NCBI GenBank assembly: GCA_027482725.1
Contig: JAIXVT010000030.1
Coordinates: forward strand, 1 to 24,114
Direction of reading: 5' to 3'
From: Pseudomonadota bacterium
GTDB taxonomy: Bacteria; Bdellovibrionota; UBA1018; CAIMNF01
DNA: 24,114 nt
In this document: positions 2,350 to 21,607 of the stretch, piece after piece
How the letters are laid out: each line of letters begins with the position of its first letter
How positions within the stretch are numbered: position 1 is the stretch's first letter
The notes under the pieces: model-generated
Databases searched by the model: none
What the model was told of the DNA's origin: nothing
Seen by the model: the letters and a program-made list of their open reading frames with translations, nothing else
Position numbers and translations under genes: made by a program

Positions 2350-2832
2350 ATGATACTCCCTCTTCTCTTTGCAGTGCTTTTGTCATTGGCGCCATTCACC
2401 CAGACCCAAGCTCAGGCCGTTGCGCCCGTAACAGCAAGCCCTGCGCAAGCCGTTCTCCCGCAAAGTCTTTCTGATTTTGAAAAGCTGGCTAAGGCTAAAA
2501 TGAACGCGATCGTGGATCGAGAAAAGAAAGCCAAACAAGAGATTAAAAAGAAACAACAAGCAGACAAAAAATCTTGGGATGAGGGTGAAAAATCCAGAAG
2601 ACAACAGTTCTTTAAAGACAATTTGAGTGGACCGGATCGCCGTGCTTATGTTCAAGAATACAAAGCCCGTCAGGAGCGATTTGAAATCATGCAGGATGCC
2701 GAGAAAACGGCAACTCGTGAGTACTATGCCGAAGAAAAGTCTGAATTAAAGAAGAAGATCGAAGAAAAAAGGAAGTTAATTAAAAAAGCAATTCAGACCA
2801 AGTCGCCAATTACATCAGACATAGTGCCGTAG
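2350..2832 (+). CDS. Secreted hypothetical protein, highly charged and predicted helical/coiled-coil
   Basis: Hydrophobic N-terminal signal peptide (MILPLLFAVLLSLAPFTQTQA), then a K/E/Q-rich helical body. No family motif recognised. Confidence 0.75.
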   Translation: MILPLLFAVLLSLAPFTQTQAQAVAPVTASPAQAVLPQSLSDFEKLAKAKMNAIVDREKKAKQEIKKKQQADKKSWDEGEKSRRQQFFKDNLSGPDRRAYVQEYKARQERFEIMQDAEKTATREYYAEEKSELKKKIEEKRKLIKKAIQTKSPITSDIVP

Positions 2833-2833
2833 C

Positions 2834-3484
2834 TTAAAAGCCCCGACCTGTTCCCCATAAAATCTTGTGGAGTTGGTATTGAAAGCGAACAGGAGCTCGG
2901 CTTGCGACGATCCAATCTGCAAGGTGTGTCGGATTGACTTGGGGTACACTCGGCGAAAAATAAATGGGATTTTTGATTCCGGATGTTGTGAATTCTTGAA
3001 CTTGTTGGATTGCCCATTCAAAATCCGCATGGTCCGTAATGACAAATTTAATCTCATCCTGCGGTCGCAGGTGGGTTAAGTTTTCCTTGTATTTCCCGCG
3101 ACACATTCCCGATCCCGGAGTTTTTACATCCATAACCACGCGGCACTCTGGGGGCAACCCCTGGATAGAGATTTCTCCATGGGTTTCAATGCTCACGTGG
3201 AACCCCTCGTGGATTAATCGATCAATGAGAGGACGGGCCTGACGCTGGAGTAGGGGCTCGCCCCCCGTGACTAAAACATATTTTGTGGGCTGGGTCTTTG
3301 CTTCTAGAACAAGCTCATCAATGCTTCGACGTGACCCGCCTTTAAAGCTGTAGGTCGTATCGCAGTAAGTGCAACGCAAGTTACAACCCGTTAGACGAAT
3401 GAAAAAATAGGGTATCCCGACGTGGCTGGTTTCGCCTTGAAGGGAATAAAATGTTTCGGTGACCAATACGTCGTGAAATGCCAT
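2834..3484 (-). CDS. queE: 7-carboxy-7-deazaguanine synthase (radical SAM)
   Basis: ETFYSLQGE N-terminus, FIRLTGCNLRCTYCDT (CxxxCxxC), VTGGEPLLQ, D.KTPGSG and C-terminal QYQLHKILWG. Confidence 0.93.
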   Translation of the reverse strand: MAFHDVLVTETFYSLQGETSHVGIPYFFIRLTGCNLRCTYCDTTYSFKGGSRRSIDELVLEAKTQPTKYVLVTGGEPLLQRQARPLIDRLIHEGFHVSIETHGEISIQGLPPECRVVMDVKTPGSGMCRGKYKENLTHLRPQDEIKFVITDHADFEWAIQQVQEFTTSGIKNPIYFSPSVPQVNPTHLADWIVASRAPVRFQYQLHKILWGTGRGF

Positions 3485-3513
3485 GACTCTCTGAGTCTAA
3501 AGGGGTAACCGTG

Positions 3514-3542
3514 GTTCTACAACCGAGCTGAGTCTCAATCAA
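3514..3542 (-). promoter_or_regulatory. Possible weak sigma70-type promoter for queE (TTGATT-N17-TAGAAC)
   Basis: Minus-strand -35 at 3542-3537, 17-nt spacer, -10 at 3519-3514. The -7 position is C rather than the conserved T. Confidence 0.3.
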
Positions 3543-3582
3543 AAAAATAAAACTTCCCCTCGGTTTTTCAACCGAGGGGAAG
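3541..3582 (-). terminator. Intrinsic terminator downstream of the c-di-GMP riboswitch and upstream of queE
   Basis: Minus strand reads CTTCCCCTCGGTT-GAAA-AACCGAGGGGAAG-TTTTATTTTTTT: a perfect 13-bp stem, GNRA loop and long U tract. Confidence 0.92.
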
Positions 3583-3657
3583 AGGAATTGAAGAGGAGGT
3601 CCCTTTGGCTTGGGTTGGTTAGGGGGACCCCCTTTGAAGATTTGGAAGGCTCTTCCT

Positions 3658-3754
3658 CCTTTGGCAGACCAGCCAGCATCTCGGTCATAAATGACCGGGG
3701 AAGCTCTGTGACTTTGCGTGCCGGACTTTCGTCTCGGGTTGCCTTTTTCAAAGG
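3658..3754 (-). ncRNA. c-di-GMP-I (GEMM) riboswitch aptamer
   Basis: Minus strand reads CCTTTG-AAAAA-GGCAAC-CCGAGAC-GAAA-GTCCGG-CACGC-AAAGTCACAGAGC...GCTGGCTGGTCTGC-CAAAGG. It has a 6-bp P1 (CCTTTG/CAAAGG), a GAAA-capped arm and the ACGCAAAG core. Positions equivalent to Vibrio Vc2 G20 (3743), C44 (3718), A47 (3715), G83 (3673) and C92 (3664) are all present at the expected spacing. Confidence 0.9.
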
Positions 3755-3783
3755 GGGGTACGGTGACACCCTCTTCATAACTA

Positions 3784-3792
3784 AGAATATCA
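3784..3792 (-). promoter_or_regulatory. Extended -10 promoter element (TGaTATTCT) for the riboswitch-containing RNA
   Basis: Minus-strand TG-n-TATTCT about 30 nt upstream of aptamer P1. It implies a TSS near 3779-3776. Confidence 0.45.
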
Positions 3793-3857
3793 ACCCCTGG
3801 AAATGAACGAAATGTGTCTGCTCGGACTGGGTAAAATAAGGCAATATAGAACCCATC

Positions 3858-4976
3858 ATGTTGAACAGAGCTTGGACTATAGCTTTACTGATTATGCCCC
3901 TTTGGGGGGGCGTCTCATGGGTCAGTGAGGCTGAACCCCTAAGCGTTAAACTGAAAGAATTGAATAAAGCATTACCCAAGACTAACGCTCGTCAAGTCGT
4001 GATTTATCCACCTGCCGGTAATCTCAAGATCACGGGTTGGGCGCAAGAATCTGTGCAAATCAACAGTACTTTGGTTTACCCGCAGTCGAGCACAGAAAGC
4101 CCGGAGGTCGGATTATCGGTGCTTGAGCTTCCCGAAGCGGTGGAGATGCGTTGGGTTTTGCAACAAGGTATTGATCTGCTTTCAAAGATAAAACTGAAGC
4201 CCGAGATCGGTTCTGCTCACAACACGATAGAGATAAAAATGCCTTCCCATAAATCGTGCGTTGTTTACGGGGGGAGCCTATCTGGAAATGTTGTGATCGA
4301 GCGGCTCCATGCAGGAGTCGAAATCTTGGGAACGAAAAAATCAGTCCGCTTGTACCAGGTAAAATCTTCGCATACTGCCCGTGTGGTGACTCAAGACGGA
4401 AGCATTCAGGTGTTTTCATCTGAAACTCCGTTACATGCAGAAACAAAAAACGGAGGGATTGATCTTACTGATGTTAAATGTAAGGAGTGTACGCTCATTG
4501 CGCCGCAGGGAAAAATTGTCGCCGTTCATATCGATGGCACAGTCCGGATTTCAACACAGGTTTCTGATGTTGCCATTAGTAAAATGCGGGGTAGCCTTGA
4601 GGTGACCGCCGAGTCCGGTAAAGTGGGTGTTGTTGATTTGGATGGAGGATTCCAATTGGAAACCCAGCGAGCTTCGCTTGATCTTGCGTTGGTCAATGTG
4701 ACTCAAGATAGTTTTATCAAGGCCGATCATACGCAGGTTTCCCTCAAGCTCCCCACCCGTTTTTCAGGTCTGATTGATCTAGTGGGTACGATTAAACCGC
4801 CTGTCGTTTTGTTTCCTCACAAACGGATCGAATCTCGCCAAGGAACCGTGTACGGCCCAACCCCACCTGGAGATCGATTTATCGCAATCGGCGCAAAAGA
4901 AACTCCGCTGATTCGCATCATTCATCGGGGGGAAGTAACCCGTATTGACCGGAATACCGCAGAGGGCGGGTTATGA
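3858..4976 (+). CDS. Secreted DUF4097/adhesin-like beta-strand-repeat protein
   Basis: Signal peptide, an N-terminal 'GNLKITGWAQESVQI' segment, and repeated short beta motifs (T..G.I.., S..G.V.., L.T..G.I) typical of DUF4097-type beta-solenoids. Confidence 0.55.
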   Translation: MLNRAWTIALLIMPLWGGVSWVSEAEPLSVKLKELNKALPKTNARQVVIYPPAGNLKITGWAQESVQINSTLVYPQSSTESPEVGLSVLELPEAVEMRWVLQQGIDLLSKIKLKPEIGSAHNTIEIKMPSHKSCVVYGGSLSGNVVIERLHAGVEILGTKKSVRLYQVKSSHTARVVTQDGSIQVFSSETPLHAETKNGGIDLTDVKCKECTLIAPQGKIVAVHIDGTVRISTQVSDVAISKMRGSLEVTAESGKVGVVDLDGGFQLETQRASLDLALVNVTQDSFIKADHTQVSLKLPTRFSGLIDLVGTIKPPVVLFPHKRIESRQGTVYGPTPPGDRFIAIGAKETPLIRIIHRGEVTRIDRNTAEGGL

Positions 4977-5974
4977 GTAAGGGGAAGGTCCTCCTGATCA
5001 GGTTATCGAGTTTTGGAGATATTGTTTTGACCACAGCTGCCATAGAGACCTGTGTTCAAGCAGGATATGATGTGGAATTTGTCACCACCACAGATTTTTC
5101 GTTTGTGCTTCAGGGAGACCCTAGAATAAAAAAACTTTGGTTGTTTGAAAAAAAACAGGGATTAAAAAAGTGGATTTCTCTTGGGAGGCAAATTTTTTCG
5201 TCCGGTGGATATTCCGCTGTTTTTGATCTTCACCGAAATATCCGAACATGGGTATGGAAATCCCTATTCAGAAATCAGTCTTGGAAAAGTATTTCGAAAG
5301 AAAGGCTAAGAACGGGTTTGCTCCTTTTGATGAGGAACAAGCTCCCCACGTCTTGGCGCCCCACGCCTTATCATCAAAGGTTTTCTCACGTTTGTGCCAA
5401 GGCACTTGGCGCACGGCCAGCCCATCCTCATCTGATCAGTGCGGCTGGACATAAATCGAATTTTTATGCCGTGATGCCGTCGTCCAAGTGGCCAACTAAA
5501 GAGTGGGGATATCAGCATTTTTTTGATCTGATTCGTCTGATTCATCACGCTTCTCCTGATCTCGTCCCCTTGATTCTGGGGCGTGGGCCGGACGCTTCGT
5601 CGGTAAAGCTTTATGAACTCCTCCGATCTTCGGGTATTCCTTTTCTAAGTTTGATTGATGAGCCTGATTTTTCGATTCAGAAACGTAAAATTCAAAGTTG
5701 TCGCTTTTTCGTTGGGGTTGACACTGGGTTTGCGCATGTCGCAGAAGCACTAGGTGTTCCTGCGTTTATCGTGTTTGGTCCGACTCAACCCGAGATCGGA
5801 TTTGGCCCATGGAAGACAGAATCTAAGGCAATGAGCTTGAATTTAAGTTGTAGTCCTTGCAGCAAGTCGGGAAGTAAATGCTATCGCTGGTTTGACCGCT
5901 TTGCTTGCATGAAAGATTTAGACCCAAAAACTCTCGTTTCTGAAATTCTGTCGTCACAAGGAAACCCCCGATGA
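4973..5974 (+). CDS. Glycosyltransferase family 9 (ADP-heptose:LPS heptosyltransferase, WaaF/RfaF-like)
   Basis: KVLLIRLSSFGDIV, K.WPTKEW, FVGVDTGFAHVAEALGVPAFIVFGPT and a C-terminal CSPC...C...C segment. Confidence 0.9.
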   Translation: MSKGKVLLIRLSSFGDIVLTTAAIETCVQAGYDVEFVTTTDFSFVLQGDPRIKKLWLFEKKQGLKKWISLGRQIFSSGGYSAVFDLHRNIRTWVWKSLFRNQSWKSISKERLRTGLLLLMRNKLPTSWRPTPYHQRFSHVCAKALGARPAHPHLISAAGHKSNFYAVMPSSKWPTKEWGYQHFFDLIRLIHHASPDLVPLILGRGPDASSVKLYELLRSSGIPFLSLIDEPDFSIQKRKIQSCRFFVGVDTGFAHVAEALGVPAFIVFGPTQPEIGFGPWKTESKAMSLNLSCSPCSKSGSKCYRWFDRFACMKDLDPKTLVSEILSSQGNPR

Positions 5975-7254
5975 TTTTACACCGGTTGTATCTTGTTTTT
6001 TTTGGGGTGCTGGTAAAGTCGAGAAATTTGTTCTCAGGACGGTTCAGAACCCGCTTAGACCTTTGGGGGAACTGGGATTTGGGGGCAAGTCCTGAGCGCA
6101 CCTGTCCCATCCTCTTTCATGCCGCAAGTGTGGGTGAGCTTGAAAAACTTATCCCTATCATGGATCAGATTTGCGAACAGGCCAAAGAACTCCATTTTGG
6201 CATCACGCTCTTTTCTCCTTCTCTGATGTCGGTGTATCAAAAGGGAAACCGGCCTTTTGGTGCGCAGTGTTTATGGGTTGTTTTTAGCCCTCCTGAAAAT
6301 CGTTGGTTAGAGTTTTTTCAGCGGCATCAGGTTAAAAAAATTGTGATTGCTCAATACGAAGCCTGGCCCGGACTTTGGTTGGCCGCGCAAAAGCTTGGAA
6401 TTGAAGTGCTCGTAGTCGACGCTCGTCCGAGAAAATCTCTCCGCCTGATTAAGCGTTGGTTTATGTGGAACAGGTTTCAACTTCCACGCCTGCATTTTTT
6501 TGGTCAAGACTCGTTTAAAGAGTATTTTTTGCAATTTTTTCCCGGGAGTAAATTTTCCCCTCTGATCGATCCGCGTTGGATACGCGTACAGAATCGCATT
6601 CAAAATTCTCAGAGGGGAGAAAAGCGTCCGCGGCTTATAGAAGTGTTGAGGGATTATTTCTCTATCGATGTCCCCAACACCCTCTTGATCGCGAGCGCCT
6701 ATGTCGAGGATCTCCGGTTTCTGTCCCCAGTGCTGGGCTCTTTTGATCGAATTGTCATCGTTCCGCACGAAATTACCCCTGCTTATCTCAAGGCATTTTC
6801 AGAGACGCTGACTCAGTTTTTTGGAAAAAATTGGACCTCTACCTTGGATCCTCGGGGAGCCAGTTCGTCATGCCGGGTTGTCTTTGTTCCTGAAAAGGGA
6901 TTTCTTGTAGAGCTGTTTTCCATTGCACGCATTGTTTGGGTGGGTGGTGGATTCAATAAAGGGGTTCACTCGGTAATAGAGCCCGCTTTGTTTCCCGTTT
7001 TTATTGGGGCGGGACCAAAGAATTCCAATCTTCCGGAGGTGTCTCTCTTGTCGGACATGGGTAGGCTAAAAATTTGTCATCGGCAGGTCGATCTTGAGGC
7101 CTGGATTAAGGATCTTCGCCTCAAGGAGGACAGATCTCATGAACTTAAAAATTCGCAAATAGAGCTTGAAAAACGTTTTTGCTCGGAAAATCTTCGATGG
7201 GTCATCGGCGCTGTAAAAGCGGATCTCATCCAAAAGGATATCAGTTATGAGTGA
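5971..7254 (+). CDS. waaA: 3-deoxy-D-manno-octulosonic acid (Kdo) transferase, divergent
   Basis: FHAASVGE motif, YEAWPG (equivalent to ELWPN/EFWPN) and VGGGF..GVHSVIEPA. Adjacent to a GT9 gene with ATGA overlap. Confidence 0.82.
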   Translation: MILHRLYLVFFGVLVKSRNLFSGRFRTRLDLWGNWDLGASPERTCPILFHAASVGELEKLIPIMDQICEQAKELHFGITLFSPSLMSVYQKGNRPFGAQCLWVVFSPPENRWLEFFQRHQVKKIVIAQYEAWPGLWLAAQKLGIEVLVVDARPRKSLRLIKRWFMWNRFQLPRLHFFGQDSFKEYFLQFFPGSKFSPLIDPRWIRVQNRIQNSQRGEKRPRLIEVLRDYFSIDVPNTLLIASAYVEDLRFLSPVLGSFDRIVIVPHEITPAYLKAFSETLTQFFGKNWTSTLDPRGASSSCRVVFVPEKGFLVELFSIARIVWVGGGFNKGVHSVIEPALFPVFIGAGPKNSNLPEVSLLSDMGRLKICHRQVDLEAWIKDLRLKEDRSHELKNSQIELEKRFCSENLRWVIGAVKADLIQKDISYE

Positions 7255-9264: not shown

Positions 9265-11418
9265 ATGAAATCCTTCTCGGTAGAGCATAAAAGCGTCGGT
9301 GGAAAACAAATTGCAGTCGTCACTTTTGACCTTCCGGGTGAAAAGGTGAATAAATTTAATCGCGAAGTCATGGAGGATTTTCAGATCCTCCTCCATACGC
9401 TGCAAAAAGATACGTCCGATGTTGTGGTGATGATTTCTAAAAAATCAGGAATTTTTATTGCGGGTGCGGACATCAAATTAATCCAATCAGCGCAGACCGA
9501 AGCCGAAGCTTTTGAGCTTGCGCGTGCAGGTCAAAATTTACTCACCGCCTGGGAAACGCTGCCCATGCCAACCGTTGTCGCCATTCAGGGGGCGTGTATG
9601 GGAGGGGGCTGCGAACTTGCGCTGGCCAGCTCCGCTATCGTGATGAGCCAGGACGCGACAACCCGCATCGGGCTGCCAGAAACTCTTCTCGGAATTATTC
9701 CTGGAATGGGCGGATGTGTCCGCTTACCTTGGAAGGTGGGGATTGCGCAGGGCTTAGATCTGATTTTGACCGGAAAAACGCTTACCGCCGAAAAAGCCTA
9801 TAAAATCGGACTAGCCGAGGCTTCTCTTCCCGTCGAAAACTTCGTTCAAGAGGCACTGGTATGGGCATCGAACCATGCTGATCTGCTGAAGAAAAAAACA
9901 ATTCTTGCAAAAAAACCTGCGCTCGGGGGAACTGGAGGGTGGATCGGGTCGGTGCTGGAGTCAGGGTTGGCTCGATCCATGATTTTCTCAAAAGCAAAGT
10001 CTAGCGTTCTAGAAAAGACCAAGGGACATTATCCCGCACCCCTAGAGGCGATTGACGTGATTTCTGAAATCGGGACCTGCTACCAAGCGCGATTTTCGGG
10101 CCAAGAGTTACAAGAGGCGCTGGTCCGTGAGGCTCGCGGTTTTGCCAAGATGGCGATGACTCCTGTTTCAAAAAACCTCATCCGTTTGTTTTTTATGACC
10201 GAATCGGTAAAGGGAGCGTTTGAAAAAATGCCCGTTACCCGAGCAGGTGTCCTCGGGGCCGGAGTCATGGGGGGAGGCATTGCCCAACTCTTTGCCGATA
10301 AAAACGTTCCCGTGGTGATGAAGGATATTTCGCCGCAAGCTTTAGAAACAGGAATTCAGTCGGCGCTCGCATTGTTTAAAAAGTCGTTAAAAAAGCGGAA
10401 AATTAACGAACGTCAGTTTCAGCAAAAACTGAATCTTTTGACTCCAACCCTAGACGTCAAGCGCTTGGGCTCGGCTCAGGTTATCGTCGAGGCCGTTGTC
10501 GAAAAGCTAGAGGTTAAACAAGCTGTGCTGAGTGAAATCGAGAACGACGTCCCCGAAACTACCATCTTGGCCTCGAACACGTCTTCTCTTCCTATTACCA
10601 ACATTCAGTCTGCGCTTAAGCGCCCACAAAATTTTTGCGGAATGCATTTTTTCAATCCTGTTCACAAAATGCCACTGGTAGAAGTGATTCGCGGAGAGAA
10701 GTCTTCTGATCGGACCGTCACTCAGGTTTATCAATTAGCAAAACAACTCGGTAAAACGCCCGTCATCGTAAAGGATTCTCCCGGATTTTTGGTGAATCGT
10801 CTCTTGATGCCGTACTTGTCTGAGGCCGCAAGCCTCCTTACCGAAGGGGTGCCCATTCTAGAAATTGATCGCGCTCTTTTAAATTTTGGAATGCCCATGG
10901 GACCGATTGAACTTATTGATGAAGTGGGAATTGATGTCGGCCAAAAAGTGGCCGGAATTCTCAGAGAGGCCTTCGGTGACCGAATGAATGCGCCTCAGCT
11001 TTTTAACGGATTTATTGAAAAAAAACGTCTTGGGAAAAAAACAAGACATGGGTTTTATCGTTATGAAGGTCCAATAGACCGACTTCAGAAAAAGTTTGAT
11101 CCCGAGGTGTACTCGTTTTTGGGGGTTCAGCCCCGCCCTCAATCTGTCGCTCCGGATGTGATTTTGGATCGTTGTCTTTTGGTCATGATCAACGAAGCTG
11201 CGCGTTGTTTAGAGGAAGGCATCGTCCAATCTCCTGATGATGTCGATTTGGCGATGATCATGGGGACAGGATTTCCGCCGTTCCTAGGAGGACTGATGTC
11301 GTATGCCAAGCATCGTGGTTATGGAAGTTGTGTTCAGCGCCTCAAGGAACTGGCATCGCTTTACGGTTCCCGATTCGAGCCCTCATCGGCATTGATTCAG
11401 CTGAGTCAGGGAGTTTGA
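9265..11418 (+). CDS. fadJ: Fatty-acid oxidation complex alpha subunit (enoyl-CoA hydratase / 3-hydroxyacyl-CoA dehydrogenase), FadJ-like
   Basis: FIAGADI, GGGCELALA and GLPETLLGIIPG (both hydratase Glu), GVLGAGVMGGGIA, LASNTSSLPI, GMHFFNPVHKMPLVE and GTGFPPFLGG. Confidence 0.9.
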   Translation: MKSFSVEHKSVGGKQIAVVTFDLPGEKVNKFNREVMEDFQILLHTLQKDTSDVVVMISKKSGIFIAGADIKLIQSAQTEAEAFELARAGQNLLTAWETLPMPTVVAIQGACMGGGCELALASSAIVMSQDATTRIGLPETLLGIIPGMGGCVRLPWKVGIAQGLDLILTGKTLTAEKAYKIGLAEASLPVENFVQEALVWASNHADLLKKKTILAKKPALGGTGGWIGSVLESGLARSMIFSKAKSSVLEKTKGHYPAPLEAIDVISEIGTCYQARFSGQELQEALVREARGFAKMAMTPVSKNLIRLFFMTESVKGAFEKMPVTRAGVLGAGVMGGGIAQLFADKNVPVVMKDISPQALETGIQSALALFKKSLKKRKINERQFQQKLNLLTPTLDVKRLGSAQVIVEAVVEKLEVKQAVLSEIENDVPETTILASNTSSLPITNIQSALKRPQNFCGMHFFNPVHKMPLVEVIRGEKSSDRTVTQVYQLAKQLGKTPVIVKDSPGFLVNRLLMPYLSEAASLLTEGVPILEIDRALLNFGMPMGPIELIDEVGIDVGQKVAGILREAFGDRMNAPQLFNGFIEKKRLGKKTRHGFYRYEGPIDRLQKKFDPEVYSFLGVQPRPQSVAPDVILDRCLLVMINEAARCLEEGIVQSPDDVDLAMIMGTGFPPFLGGLMSYAKHRGYGSCVQRLKELASLYGSRFEPSSALIQLSQGV

Positions 11419-15044: not shown

Positions 15045-15119
15045 TGGCTCGTAGCTCAGCGGTAGAGCACTACCTTGACATGGTAGGGGTCGCTGGTTCG
15101 ATCCCAGTCGAGCCAACCA
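15045..15119 (+). tRNA. tRNA-Val(GAC)
   Basis: Full cloverleaf: acceptor TGGCTCG/CGAGCCA, D arm GCTC/GAGC, anticodon stem CTACC/GGTAG with loop TT-GAC-AT, T loop TTCGATC, discriminator A, encoded CCA. Confidence 0.97.
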
Positions 15120-17402: not shown

Positions 17403-17822
17403 ATGAACGTTTCCGGATTCCTTCCCGCACTCGAACTCGAGTGCGAAGTGGACTTTTTCGCATGGCACTCTTTACCGGATAATCCGGAGGTGCATCAGCA
17501 TCGATTTTTGCTGGCGGTCCGGATAAAGAAAAAACGCCAAGCGGGCCAAGACCGCCTGCTTCATCTCCCCGAATTTAAAAAAATATTAGAGTCGTGGATC
17601 ACCCCGCTTCAGGACCAAGTGCTTAATCAATGCCGAGCGCTGAGTGCATCGATACATGATCGGCCAACGCTGGAAAATCTGATGACTTACTTCTCGGAGT
17701 TGTGCTCGCAAAACGAACCCTTGGGAAGCTGTTGGGTACAAATTAGGCTTGAGCTTTACGAACCCACTGGGTACTTTTGGGGTCGAATTTTACTGAATCG
17801 TGAAAATGGGGGGCACACTTAA
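17403..17822 (+). CDS. 6-pyruvoyl-tetrahydropterin synthase / QueD superfamily (COG0720) protein, atypical active site
   Basis: F.A.H.L, HxH (HQH), LN, PTLENL and a terminal E follow the T-fold QueD layout. The catalytic Cys and the DH His are absent. Confidence 0.7.
   Translation: MNVSGFLPALELECEVDFFAWHSLPDNPEVHQHRFLLAVRIKKKRQAGQDRLLHLPEFKKILESWITPLQDQVLNQCRALSASIHDRPTLENLMTYFSELCSQNEPLGSCWVQIRLELYEPTGYFWGRILLNRENGGHT

Positions 17823-21522: not shown

Positions 21523-21607
<85 letters not shown>

Follow-up and report, generated by a model that had tools for sequence, protein, structure and literature searches.

Organization of the locus

The 24,114-nucleotide (nt) stretch of contig JAIXVT010000030.1 analyzed here, called the window below, carries on its minus strand a class I cyclic di-GMP (c-di-GMP-I, or GEMM-I) aptamer, which is located between a divergent DUF4097 gene upstream and the queuosine-pathway gene queE downstream. 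The aptamer is embedded in a larger RNA, mapped to 3777-3541 (-), which measures 237 nt from its first mapped element to the end of the terminator U-tract. With some reservation, we lean towards regarding this RNA as a stand-alone, terminator-ended, structured small RNA (sRNA) that binds c-di-GMP and is the Bacteriovoracia-side member of the family of merRNA, a c-di-GMP riboswitch RNA of Bdellovibrio. The main features of the locus are as follows.

3660..3753 (-), c-di-GMP-I (GEMM-I) aptamer, identified by the RF01051 match, its single copy and orthologous matches in relatives
3541..3582 (-), intrinsic terminator, a 13-bp stem at 3582-3553 (8 GC pairs) followed by the U-tract 3552-3541
2834..3484 (-), queE, a 7-carboxy-7-deazaguanine synthase-type radical-SAM protein of 216 aa, matched by TIGR04349 and PF04055
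3858..4976 (+), divergent DUF4097 "toastrack" gene, 372 aa, with divergently oriented homologues on the upstream side in 26 loci from 10 families

Identity of the aptamer

The RF01051 (c-di-GMP-I) model aligns to 3753-3660 (-) over its full length (positions 1-87 of 87) with a score of 49.8 bits and an E-value of 3.7e-7 (cmscan, Rfam 15), compared to a gathering score of 35 bits. The initial annotation, made from the letters alone, had placed such an aptamer on the minus strand, and its residue map is reproduced by the alignment of model and sequence: the Vc2-equivalent positions are G20 = 3743, C44 = 3718, A47 = 3715, G83 = 3673 and C92 = 3664. The ligand-contacting residues G20, A47 and C92 and the C44-G83 tertiary pair thus stand at the expected spacing, and the same residues are found in the relatives. 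The 6-bp P1 helix (3754-3749, CCUUUG, with 3663-3658, CAAAGG) and the GAAA tetraloop (3730-3727) were recovered as annotated. Two open reading frames (ORFs) cover the aptamer, at 3539-3979 (-, 146 aa) and 3588-3806 (+, 72 aa); no Pfam family matched either of them, in agreement with their earlier description as spurious. The aptamer had also been said to point at queE, which does lie downstream on the same strand (3484-2834).

The "receptor" of P3 in the window reads CUUC.../...GAUG, compared to CUAAG.../...UAUG in the Rfam consensus; several relatives share the variant, and others have the consensus. This non-consensus receptor may contribute to the score of the window, which is below that of most relatives (orthologous matches of 49-84 bits).

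In a permissive scan, the model RF03167 (c-di-GMP-I-GGC) ranked first by E-value, with 48.6 bits in the window, 61.1 bits in L017 and 71.2 bits in L035 (the prefix L denotes loci and G genomes), at a gathering score of 59 bits. The GGC variant is distinguished by a G at position 47 (CGCGAA in the Rfam model consensus). Position 47 is A in all sequences examined: the window has A at 3715, and the motif is CGCAAA in the window and all relatives, including L017 and L035, whose scores pass the threshold. Because the distinguishing G is replaced by A throughout, the ligand pocket is, by its sequence, canonical and not GGC-type.

Distribution and presence in an RNA library

The metagenome-assembled genome (MAG) that contains the window (1.73 Mb, 75% complete) has one GEMM-I match in the whole genome. 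In the order, which was sampled by this MAG and 40 relatives (41 genomes, 12 families), a match is present in 38 of the 41 genomes, with exactly one copy in 37 of these 38. A chance origin of the aptamer match is excluded by this recurrence of a single-copy match in 38 of 41 genomes. The only multi-copy genome met, G022, has three matches, one of 84 bits and two, located on other contigs, of 59.5 bits each. Of 151 genomes sampled evenly across the phylum, 43 have a match, one each; by family, all 13 genomes of f20, 4 of the 11 of f23 and both genomes of a sister family in the same class are among them, and in several further families no match was found.

Among QueE loci with public names, the nearest ones with an aptamer are those of a Bacteriovoracaceae MAG, an uncultured Bacteriovorax and an "Oligoflexia" MAG, and the source organism is therefore a member of the Bdellovibrionota near the Bacteriovoracaceae. 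GGDEF genes are present in the window MAG and its relatives. The sequence itself was found in DNA runs and in one RNA run, all of them freshwater metagenomes. The RNA run, a freshwater metatranscriptome from a study separate from the DNA runs, contains one 153-nt contig that is 100% identical to 3612-3764 and covers the aptamer and part of its flanks; this RNA library thus contains the RNA. This is the sole contig on the 2.2 kb around the locus, and the missing cover of queE, the DUF4097 gene and the 3' part of the RNA in this run is not evidence.

Architecture of the larger RNA

By comparing the leaders across the order by eye and with duplex calculations, the elements of the larger RNA were defined. 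They are listed in the direction of transcription.

3769..3777 (-), g', UGAAGAGGG, the 5' strand of the closing helix P0, located some 11-21 nt ahead of the aptamer in nearly every locus of the order
3746..3758 (-), a, a C-run followed by CUUUGAA, comprising the 5' strand of P1 (3754-3749) and the partner of d (3757-3747)
3644..3659 (-), c/h, the purine-rich, Shine-Dalgarno-like GGAGGAAGAG and a small hairpin directly after P1, variable in sequence and purine-rich across loci
3628..3638 (-), d, the competitor UUCAAAGGGGG, able to pair with a (3757-3747) over 11 bp in a helix incompatible with P1
3595..3632 (-), the d:f hairpin, 3632-3624 with 3603-3595 around the loop 3623-3604, formed in the centroid fold
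3589..3597 (-), g, (U)CCUCUUCA, the 3' partner strand in P0, which hardly varies within the order

The outermost helix, P0, joins the two ends of the RNA: UGAAGAGG (3777-3769) is the exact complement of CCUCUUCA (3597-3589), and the latter is found 0-14 nt before the terminator in most loci. P0 is often lengthened into the adjoining G and C runs; its median stability over 34 loci is -15.8 kcal/mol, and a median of 0.5% of shuffled sequences perform as well. Compensatory variants of P0 occur as GAAGAAG:CUUCUUC in L016, L022 and L023 (one subclade of family f1), as GAAGAAGG:CCUUCUUC in L120 and as UUGAAGGA:UUCUUCAA in L020. Since the 5' strand of P0 occupies 3777-3769, the transcript start lies upstream of 3777. 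An earlier candidate, the pairing of the purine stretch after P1 (c) with the UCUUCA of g, was abandoned, as its predicted probability is approximately 0 and g' upstream is the true partner.

Between g' and the aptamer there is a hairpin, Px, which covaries by eye (GGUCAC/GUGACC, GAUCAUUA/UAAUGAUC, GGUUGA/UCAACC and GGGUGU/ACACCC) and of which the window has a minimal form. Upstream of UGAAGAGG, another 5' hairpin is seen in most relatives, with a TAAAAT-like box ahead of it. The genus of the window differs there: the 5' hairpin is not evident in the window, and a promoter scan of the window did not reveal a convincing sigma-70 promoter for the RNA. In the relatives, the 5' hairpin often has the loop A-N-GGA (ACGGA, AUGGA, AAGGA, UAGGA), resembling CsrA/RsmA sites, and AAGAA and AUGAA also occur. 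The idea of a CsrA sponge, built on GGA motifs in the platform and in this loop, was set aside because the motifs are not universal.

The core of the RNA consists of strands that can be paired in two ways. In one arrangement, a pairs with the 3' strand of P1 (b), and the first Gs of c/h can extend P1 by pairing with the C-run. In the other, d captures the 5' strand of P1. For the window, the a:d helix is calculated at -19.9 kcal/mol vs -11.2 kcal/mol for a:b (P1 with its extension); in the loci examined the a:d helix ranges from -12 to -23 kcal/mol, and compensatory variants are seen in L020, L022, L023/L026 and L027. The d:f hairpin draws on the same G-run as the a:d helix. In folds calculated without the 5' strand of P0, the mean pairing probability of f with d is 0.82 with P1 forced and 0.55 with P1 blocked. 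The inner stem of d:f also covaries by eye (UCC:GGA, AUUU:AAAU, UUG:CAA, AUCC:GGAU, GCG:CGC, UCUUC:GAAGA). In genus g2 of family f1 (L009-L014, L013, L021, L028-L031), an extra hairpin with its own loop, YUCACCCC, is inserted in the d:f loop; the sequence of this loop complements both the GGUGAG after P1 and the G-run, which makes it a possible third competitor strand. The window lacks this hairpin.

Terminator and its relation to the aptamer

A strong hairpin is present at the position of the window terminator in the 33 loci scored, and a clear T-run follows the hairpin in 24 of 31. In thermodynamic models of 29 leaders, the terminator is intact in 26 of the 29 free folds and in 28 of the 29 folds with P1 forced, with a mean difference of 2.7 kcal/mol between the free and P1-forced states. 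The core of the RNA is thus modelled as a balanced two-state system, both states of which leave the terminator untouched, and the coupling of P1 to the terminator that is expected of a cis-acting riboswitch does not appear in these models.

Similarly, no antiterminator or other complement to the 5' arm of the terminator was found conserved across approximately 33 leaders by eye or in the 29 folded leaders, and the 5' arms themselves are unrelated between lineages. A conserved antiterminator as the general mechanism was rejected, the only options being lineage-specific, namely GGAAGAG:CUCUUCC in the window and short hairpins of g with the terminator base in some loci.

Relationship between the RNA and queE

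The queE protein of the window scores 257.7 bits with TIGR04349, below the 300-bit equivalog cut-off of this model, and four other QueE models rank next. Its orthologues downstream of the RNA in the relatives are 42-57% identical. The gene starts 57 nt past the U-tract. For the order, 34 loci have enough downstream sequence to be informative. The initial annotation proposed a survey of related genomes for adjacency of the aptamer and queE, and this adjacency is indeed conserved within the order (26 of the 34 informative loci; 10 families) and not outside it. Among 80 QueE loci from other phyla, the aptamer was found only at the three Bdellovibrionota loci mentioned above, with 17 others checked against Rfam.

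The remaining loci show the RNA and queE at increasing distances or apart. In 3 of the 34 loci queE starts 294-551 nt after the aptamer, and in 3 more it lies 1.0-1.4 kb away, behind another ORF; in L025, an AI-2E transporter gene on the other strand intervenes, and the full RNA is kept. In L008 and L112, a tRNA-Cys gene follows the terminator of the RNA, and the full RNA is kept without an adjacent queE; one of these two genomes has a distant QueE-like gene 50 kb away, and in the other none was detected. Conversely, G138 and G038, two genomes of the order without a GEMM-I match, have queE with no aptamer upstream.

The tRNA-Cys(GCA) gene is found downstream of the RNA and on its strand in L008 (1250-1325, -), L112 (1273-1348, -) and L018 (103-178, -). 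In L035, a tRNA at 2371-2443 (+) is tRNA-Cys by its anticodon, and L033 has a tRNA of unchecked identity at the equivalent position (2480-2552, +). The apparent order is RNA, queE, (gene), tRNA-Cys. Because tRNA-Cys is no substrate for queuosine, its placement is read as synteny, and it looks like a mark of the deletion that removed queE in L008 and L112.

Most queE genes of the order have no clear Shine-Dalgarno sequence, and for this reason a pyrimidine-rich element that sequesters the queE Shine-Dalgarno was discarded as an explanation. Instead, a -10-like hexamer is found 4-12 nt before the queE start, with a mean best score of 4.1 vs 2.65 in shuffles and an upstream TG in 15 of 32 cases. 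The box is likewise present before queE genes that do not follow the RNA (GATAAT in L005, TATGAT in L025 and TGaTAAAAT in G138). Together, these sequences suggest that queE has its own promoter and a very short or absent leader. The candidate in the window is a weak, inferred match:

3494..3522 (-), candidate queE promoter, TTGTAG and TAGACT separated by 17 nt, the -10 element ending 9 nt ahead of the ATG

The other genes of the pathway, namely queC, PTPS/QueD-type genes and tgt, are located elsewhere in these genomes; in the window MAG, which is incomplete, no queC was detected. At a distance of about 14 kb from queE, an ORF at 17403-17822 (+; 139 aa) in the window resembles the PTPS/QueD family weakly, with 27.4 bits for Pfam PTPS and 22.8 bits for NCBIfam QueD, the latter far short of the cut-off, and the relatives have two PTPS-type ORFs approximately 20 kb from their copy of the RNA.

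Comparison with merRNA and other known RNAs

In B. bacteriovorus HD100, the "massively expressed riboswitch RNA" (merRNA) exceeds all other attack-phase transcripts in abundance; its promoter is of extreme strength, no conserved ORF lies downstream of it, and its authors, who proposed that it serves as a c-di-GMP reservoir, saw no conservation beyond Bdellovibrio (Karunker et al. 2013, PMC3627812). G144 (family f20) is a single contig of 3.8 Mb. Its GEMM-I match, at 1,073,868-1,073,951 (-), falls inside the published HD100 merRNA coordinates, 1,073,741-1,074,185 (-) (PMC3627812), and G144 is on this basis very probably HD100 or a near twin. In G144, queE is at 35 kb, approximately 1 Mb from the RNA. 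In the Bdellovibrio-type loci, the RNA and its terminator are followed by convergent genes, and the flanks contain Mrp/ParA-type, aminotransferase and SLT-LysM genes.

Like merRNA, the window RNA belongs to the Bdellovibrionota and contains the one GEMM-I aptamer of its genome, with an intrinsic terminator approximately 120 nt after the aptamer, an element able to compete for the P1 5' strand and, ahead of the terminator, a stretch rich in pyrimidines. In fact, the Bdellovibrio-type RNAs show an analogous capture of the P1 5' strand with their own covariation (UCCUUCC:GGAAGGA, UACUUCC:GGAAGUA and others), as well as an invariant pyrimidine-rich element directly before the terminator. This element may engage in long-range 5'-3' pairings with the 5' part of the RNA, as indicated by an unrestricted duplex search that was messy and had no controls. 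The architecture thus appears to be shared across two lineages whose platform sequences cannot be aligned. On the other hand, merRNA has approximately 230 nt on the 5' side of its aptamer vs an apparent 25-90 nt in the window lineage, and it is followed by convergent genes, whereas the window RNA is followed by queE. Of the properties that define a merRNA-type RNA, the single GEMM-I aptamer of a Bdellovibrionota genome with an intrinsic terminator shortly after it is found here; the lack of a conserved downstream ORF is not, since queE is downstream in most loci of the order.

Compared to other RF01051 members, such as V. cholerae Vc2, the window aptamer shows a full-length match, P1 and two hairpins, the GAAA loop, G20/A47/C92 and the C44-G83 pair. 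It differs in its non-consensus receptor, in being part of a longer RNA that has a closing helix between its 5' and 3' parts and a P1 competitor, in a terminator with no predicted dependence on P1, and in its single copy per genome; many bacteria that use c-di-GMP have several GEMM-I copies before motility or adhesion genes. The usual RNA regulators of que genes are the preQ1 riboswitches (classes I-III), which the window RNA resembles in being an RNA element ahead of a queuosine-pathway gene. Its pocket, unlike theirs, is of the c-di-GMP type, only queE adjoins it and not a queCDEF operon, and no preQ1 family matched the region even at E <= 1. Finally, SreA/SreB of Listeria and EutX/Rli55 of Enterococcus and Listeria also combine an aptamer and a terminator into a discrete small RNA with a possible function of its own; these are distinguished by a ligand-controlled terminator and known trans targets.

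Neighbouring genes

The DUF4097 gene is about as syntenic as queE, and the block of DUF4097 gene, RNA and queE is conserved together; because the whole block is syntenic, adjacency is a weak argument for regulation. The DUF4097 protein evolves very fast (approximately 20% identity within the order). Its gene and the RNA share a short divergent promoter region of approximately 80 nt in the window. No matches to the window protein were found at the Bdellovibrio-type loci, and shared flanks with merRNA are thus not demonstrated.

The genes queE, DUF4097, 2350, 9265 and 16717 (operon-first) have no clear Shine-Dalgarno sequence, and other genes use GGAGAG-type sites. A TA-rich hexamer is found 7-9 nt before the ATG of both queE (3494-3499, -) and the DUF4097 gene (in the region 3840-3857, +). 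These sequences suggest leaderless or near-leaderless mRNAs in the lineage. The rest of the window contains housekeeping genes at 495-2300, 4973-7254 and 9265-11418 (recJ, an LPS-core heptosyltransferase and a Kdo transferase, and a FadJ/FadB-type fatty-acid oxidation subunit) and the tRNAs tRNA-Val(GAC) and tRNA-Leu(GAG) at 15045-15119 and 21523-21607.

Proposed mechanism

The merRNA-type sRNA that we favor, by a modest preference, would operate as follows. The RNA would be transcribed from its own promoter, for which the TAAAAT-like box ahead of the 5' hairpin is the candidate in the relatives. P0 (g':g) would close the RNA, and the terminator would end the transcript regardless of ligand; a closed RNA with a ligand-independent terminator would therefore accumulate as a discrete sRNA. 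Within it, two folds of nearly equal predicted stability would compete. In fold A, P1 (a:b) would be formed together with the ligand pocket and the d:f hairpin. In fold B, the competitor d would capture the 5' strand of P1 in the 11-bp helix, and the C-run of f would join a lengthened P0. The binding of c-di-GMP would select fold A.

The output may be a tunable c-di-GMP binder, acting as a buffer or reservoir as proposed for merRNA, or a ligand-dependent conformational switch whose output is not termination. Vc2-type aptamers have a very high affinity for their ligand and release it very slowly. We infer that the competitor fold might make this tight, slow-releasing binding tunable and reversible for buffering, or might expose conserved strands to a partner. 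Under this proposal queE is probably transcribed mainly from its own promoter next to the start codon, with some read-through possible, and its adjacency to the RNA would reflect conserved synteny.

Alternative explanations

Several observations weigh against a merRNA-type sRNA, and some of them are those expected of a cis-acting transcriptional riboswitch, in which c-di-GMP would decide co-transcriptionally between a stop at 3582-3541 and reading into queE, thereby setting 7-deazaguanine and queuosine-tRNA synthesis. The arrangement of aptamer, terminator and co-oriented queE 57 nt after the U-tract is the classical layout of such a riboswitch; queE starts 126-223 nt after the end of the aptamer, in the same orientation, in 26 of the 34 informative loci, and it follows the RNA in 10 families. 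In addition, the mutually exclusive a:b and a:d helices resemble an expression platform, and several families have weak U-tracts (CCAUUU...) that would permit read-through. The GGAAGAG after P1 in the window (3656-3650) could pair with CUCUUCC in the 5' arm of the terminator, a local antiterminator candidate that is unseen in other lineages. Control of the terminator may also be kinetic and co-transcriptional, which is compatible with the thermodynamic folding. No obvious Shine-Dalgarno or long spacer requires a separate transcript, and with queC, queD-type genes and tgt located elsewhere, queE would be a single control point. Other observations bear on the merRNA comparison and on the independence of queE. 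No sequence can be aligned with merRNA outside the aptamer, the shared features being architectural, and the 5' part of approximately 230 nt in merRNA has no demonstrated counterpart in the window lineage. The metatranscriptome contributes a single contig that is silent on transcript ends, levels and growth phases. The queE promoter is proposed only at the level of the consensus; in the window, its -10 is weak (TAGACT) and not significant in a shuffle test (0.23). Nevertheless, several findings speak against control of queE by c-di-GMP, as the initial annotation had envisaged it. The terminator is intact in both modelled states, and no antiterminator is conserved across lineages. The RNA and queE also occur apart: the same RNA family is an orphan in Bdellovibrio and other families, the RNA is unchanged where queE is gone or lies behind an opposite-strand gene, and queE is also found without the RNA. 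Furthermore, a -10-like box abuts the queE start, and the divergent upstream gene is about as syntenic as queE, which makes adjacency alone weak evidence. Overall, we consider a cis-acting riboswitch unlikely here; c-di-GMP control of the queuosine modification of tRNA is possible but unsupported, and it is not the best reading of the locus.

Adjacency could also have been conserved without any control by c-di-GMP if the strong promoter of a stand-alone sRNA fed or disturbed queE through terminator leak or transcriptional interference. Such a ligand-independent coupling would fit the conserved order and orientation, the very short gap between terminator and queE, the insensitivity of the terminator to the aptamer state in the models, and the extreme promoter strength of the Bdellovibrio counterpart (PMC3627812). 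Plain synteny of the block of DUF4097 gene, RNA and queE explains the adjacency equally well, and we judge this coupling to be improbable. A different proposal concerns the ligand itself, to the effect that the aptamer has drifted to the GGC class, to a cyclic GMP-AMP (cGAMP) type or to a guanine-derived metabolite of the queE pathway. The good RF03167 scores, of which those of L017 and L035 exceed the threshold of 59 bits, the non-consensus tetraloop receptor of the window and the unusual association with a GTP-derived pathway could be taken in this sense. The pocket argues otherwise: the G that distinguishes the GGC class is A in the window and all relatives, position 92 is C, and position 20 is G. 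The cGAMP-type GEMM variants have A at position 20. Since the window score is, in addition, below the RF03167 threshold and above that of RF01051, a drift of the ligand seems very improbable.

Returning to the merRNA-type sRNA, a bolder form of the proposal would extend it to the whole phylum, with the merRNA family as single-copy, c-di-GMP-operated allosteric RNAs that have a two-state core wired to a canonical GEMM-I aptamer and a non-terminator output, either tuned buffering of c-di-GMP or the ligand-dependent presentation of conserved purine- or pyrimidine-rich strands to a partner, and that in Bacteriovoracia are physically coupled to queE and so link c-di-GMP to the supply of queuosine-tRNA. 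We hold this version only tentatively, and on balance doubt it.

Implications

The c-di-GMP-I riboswitches are textbook cis regulators, to which merRNA has been the one well-known exception, a single-species curiosity with a speculative "sponge" role. The aptamer class and merRNA were thus already known; the findings presented here suggest that the same kind of RNA occurs once per genome in at least two classes of the predatory Bdellovibrionota. In the literature searched, we found no prior report of a merRNA-type RNA conserved far beyond Bdellovibrio, of a switch-like merRNA-type architecture with covariation support, or of such an RNA fixed beside queE in one order. The same searches returned no relevant report on a c-di-GMP riboswitch with queE or with Bacteriovorax, in line with the remark in the initial annotation that no link between c-di-GMP and queuosine was established.

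The conserved architecture raises the question of whether a competitor helix tunes the affinity for, and the release of, a nearly irreversibly bound ligand, and further, whether c-di-GMP is buffered by RNA during the switch from attack to growth. If the RNA merely neighbours queE, it is a well-characterized new member of a known aptamer class; if the link to queE is functional, it would be the first found between c-di-GMP and queuosine-tRNA modification.

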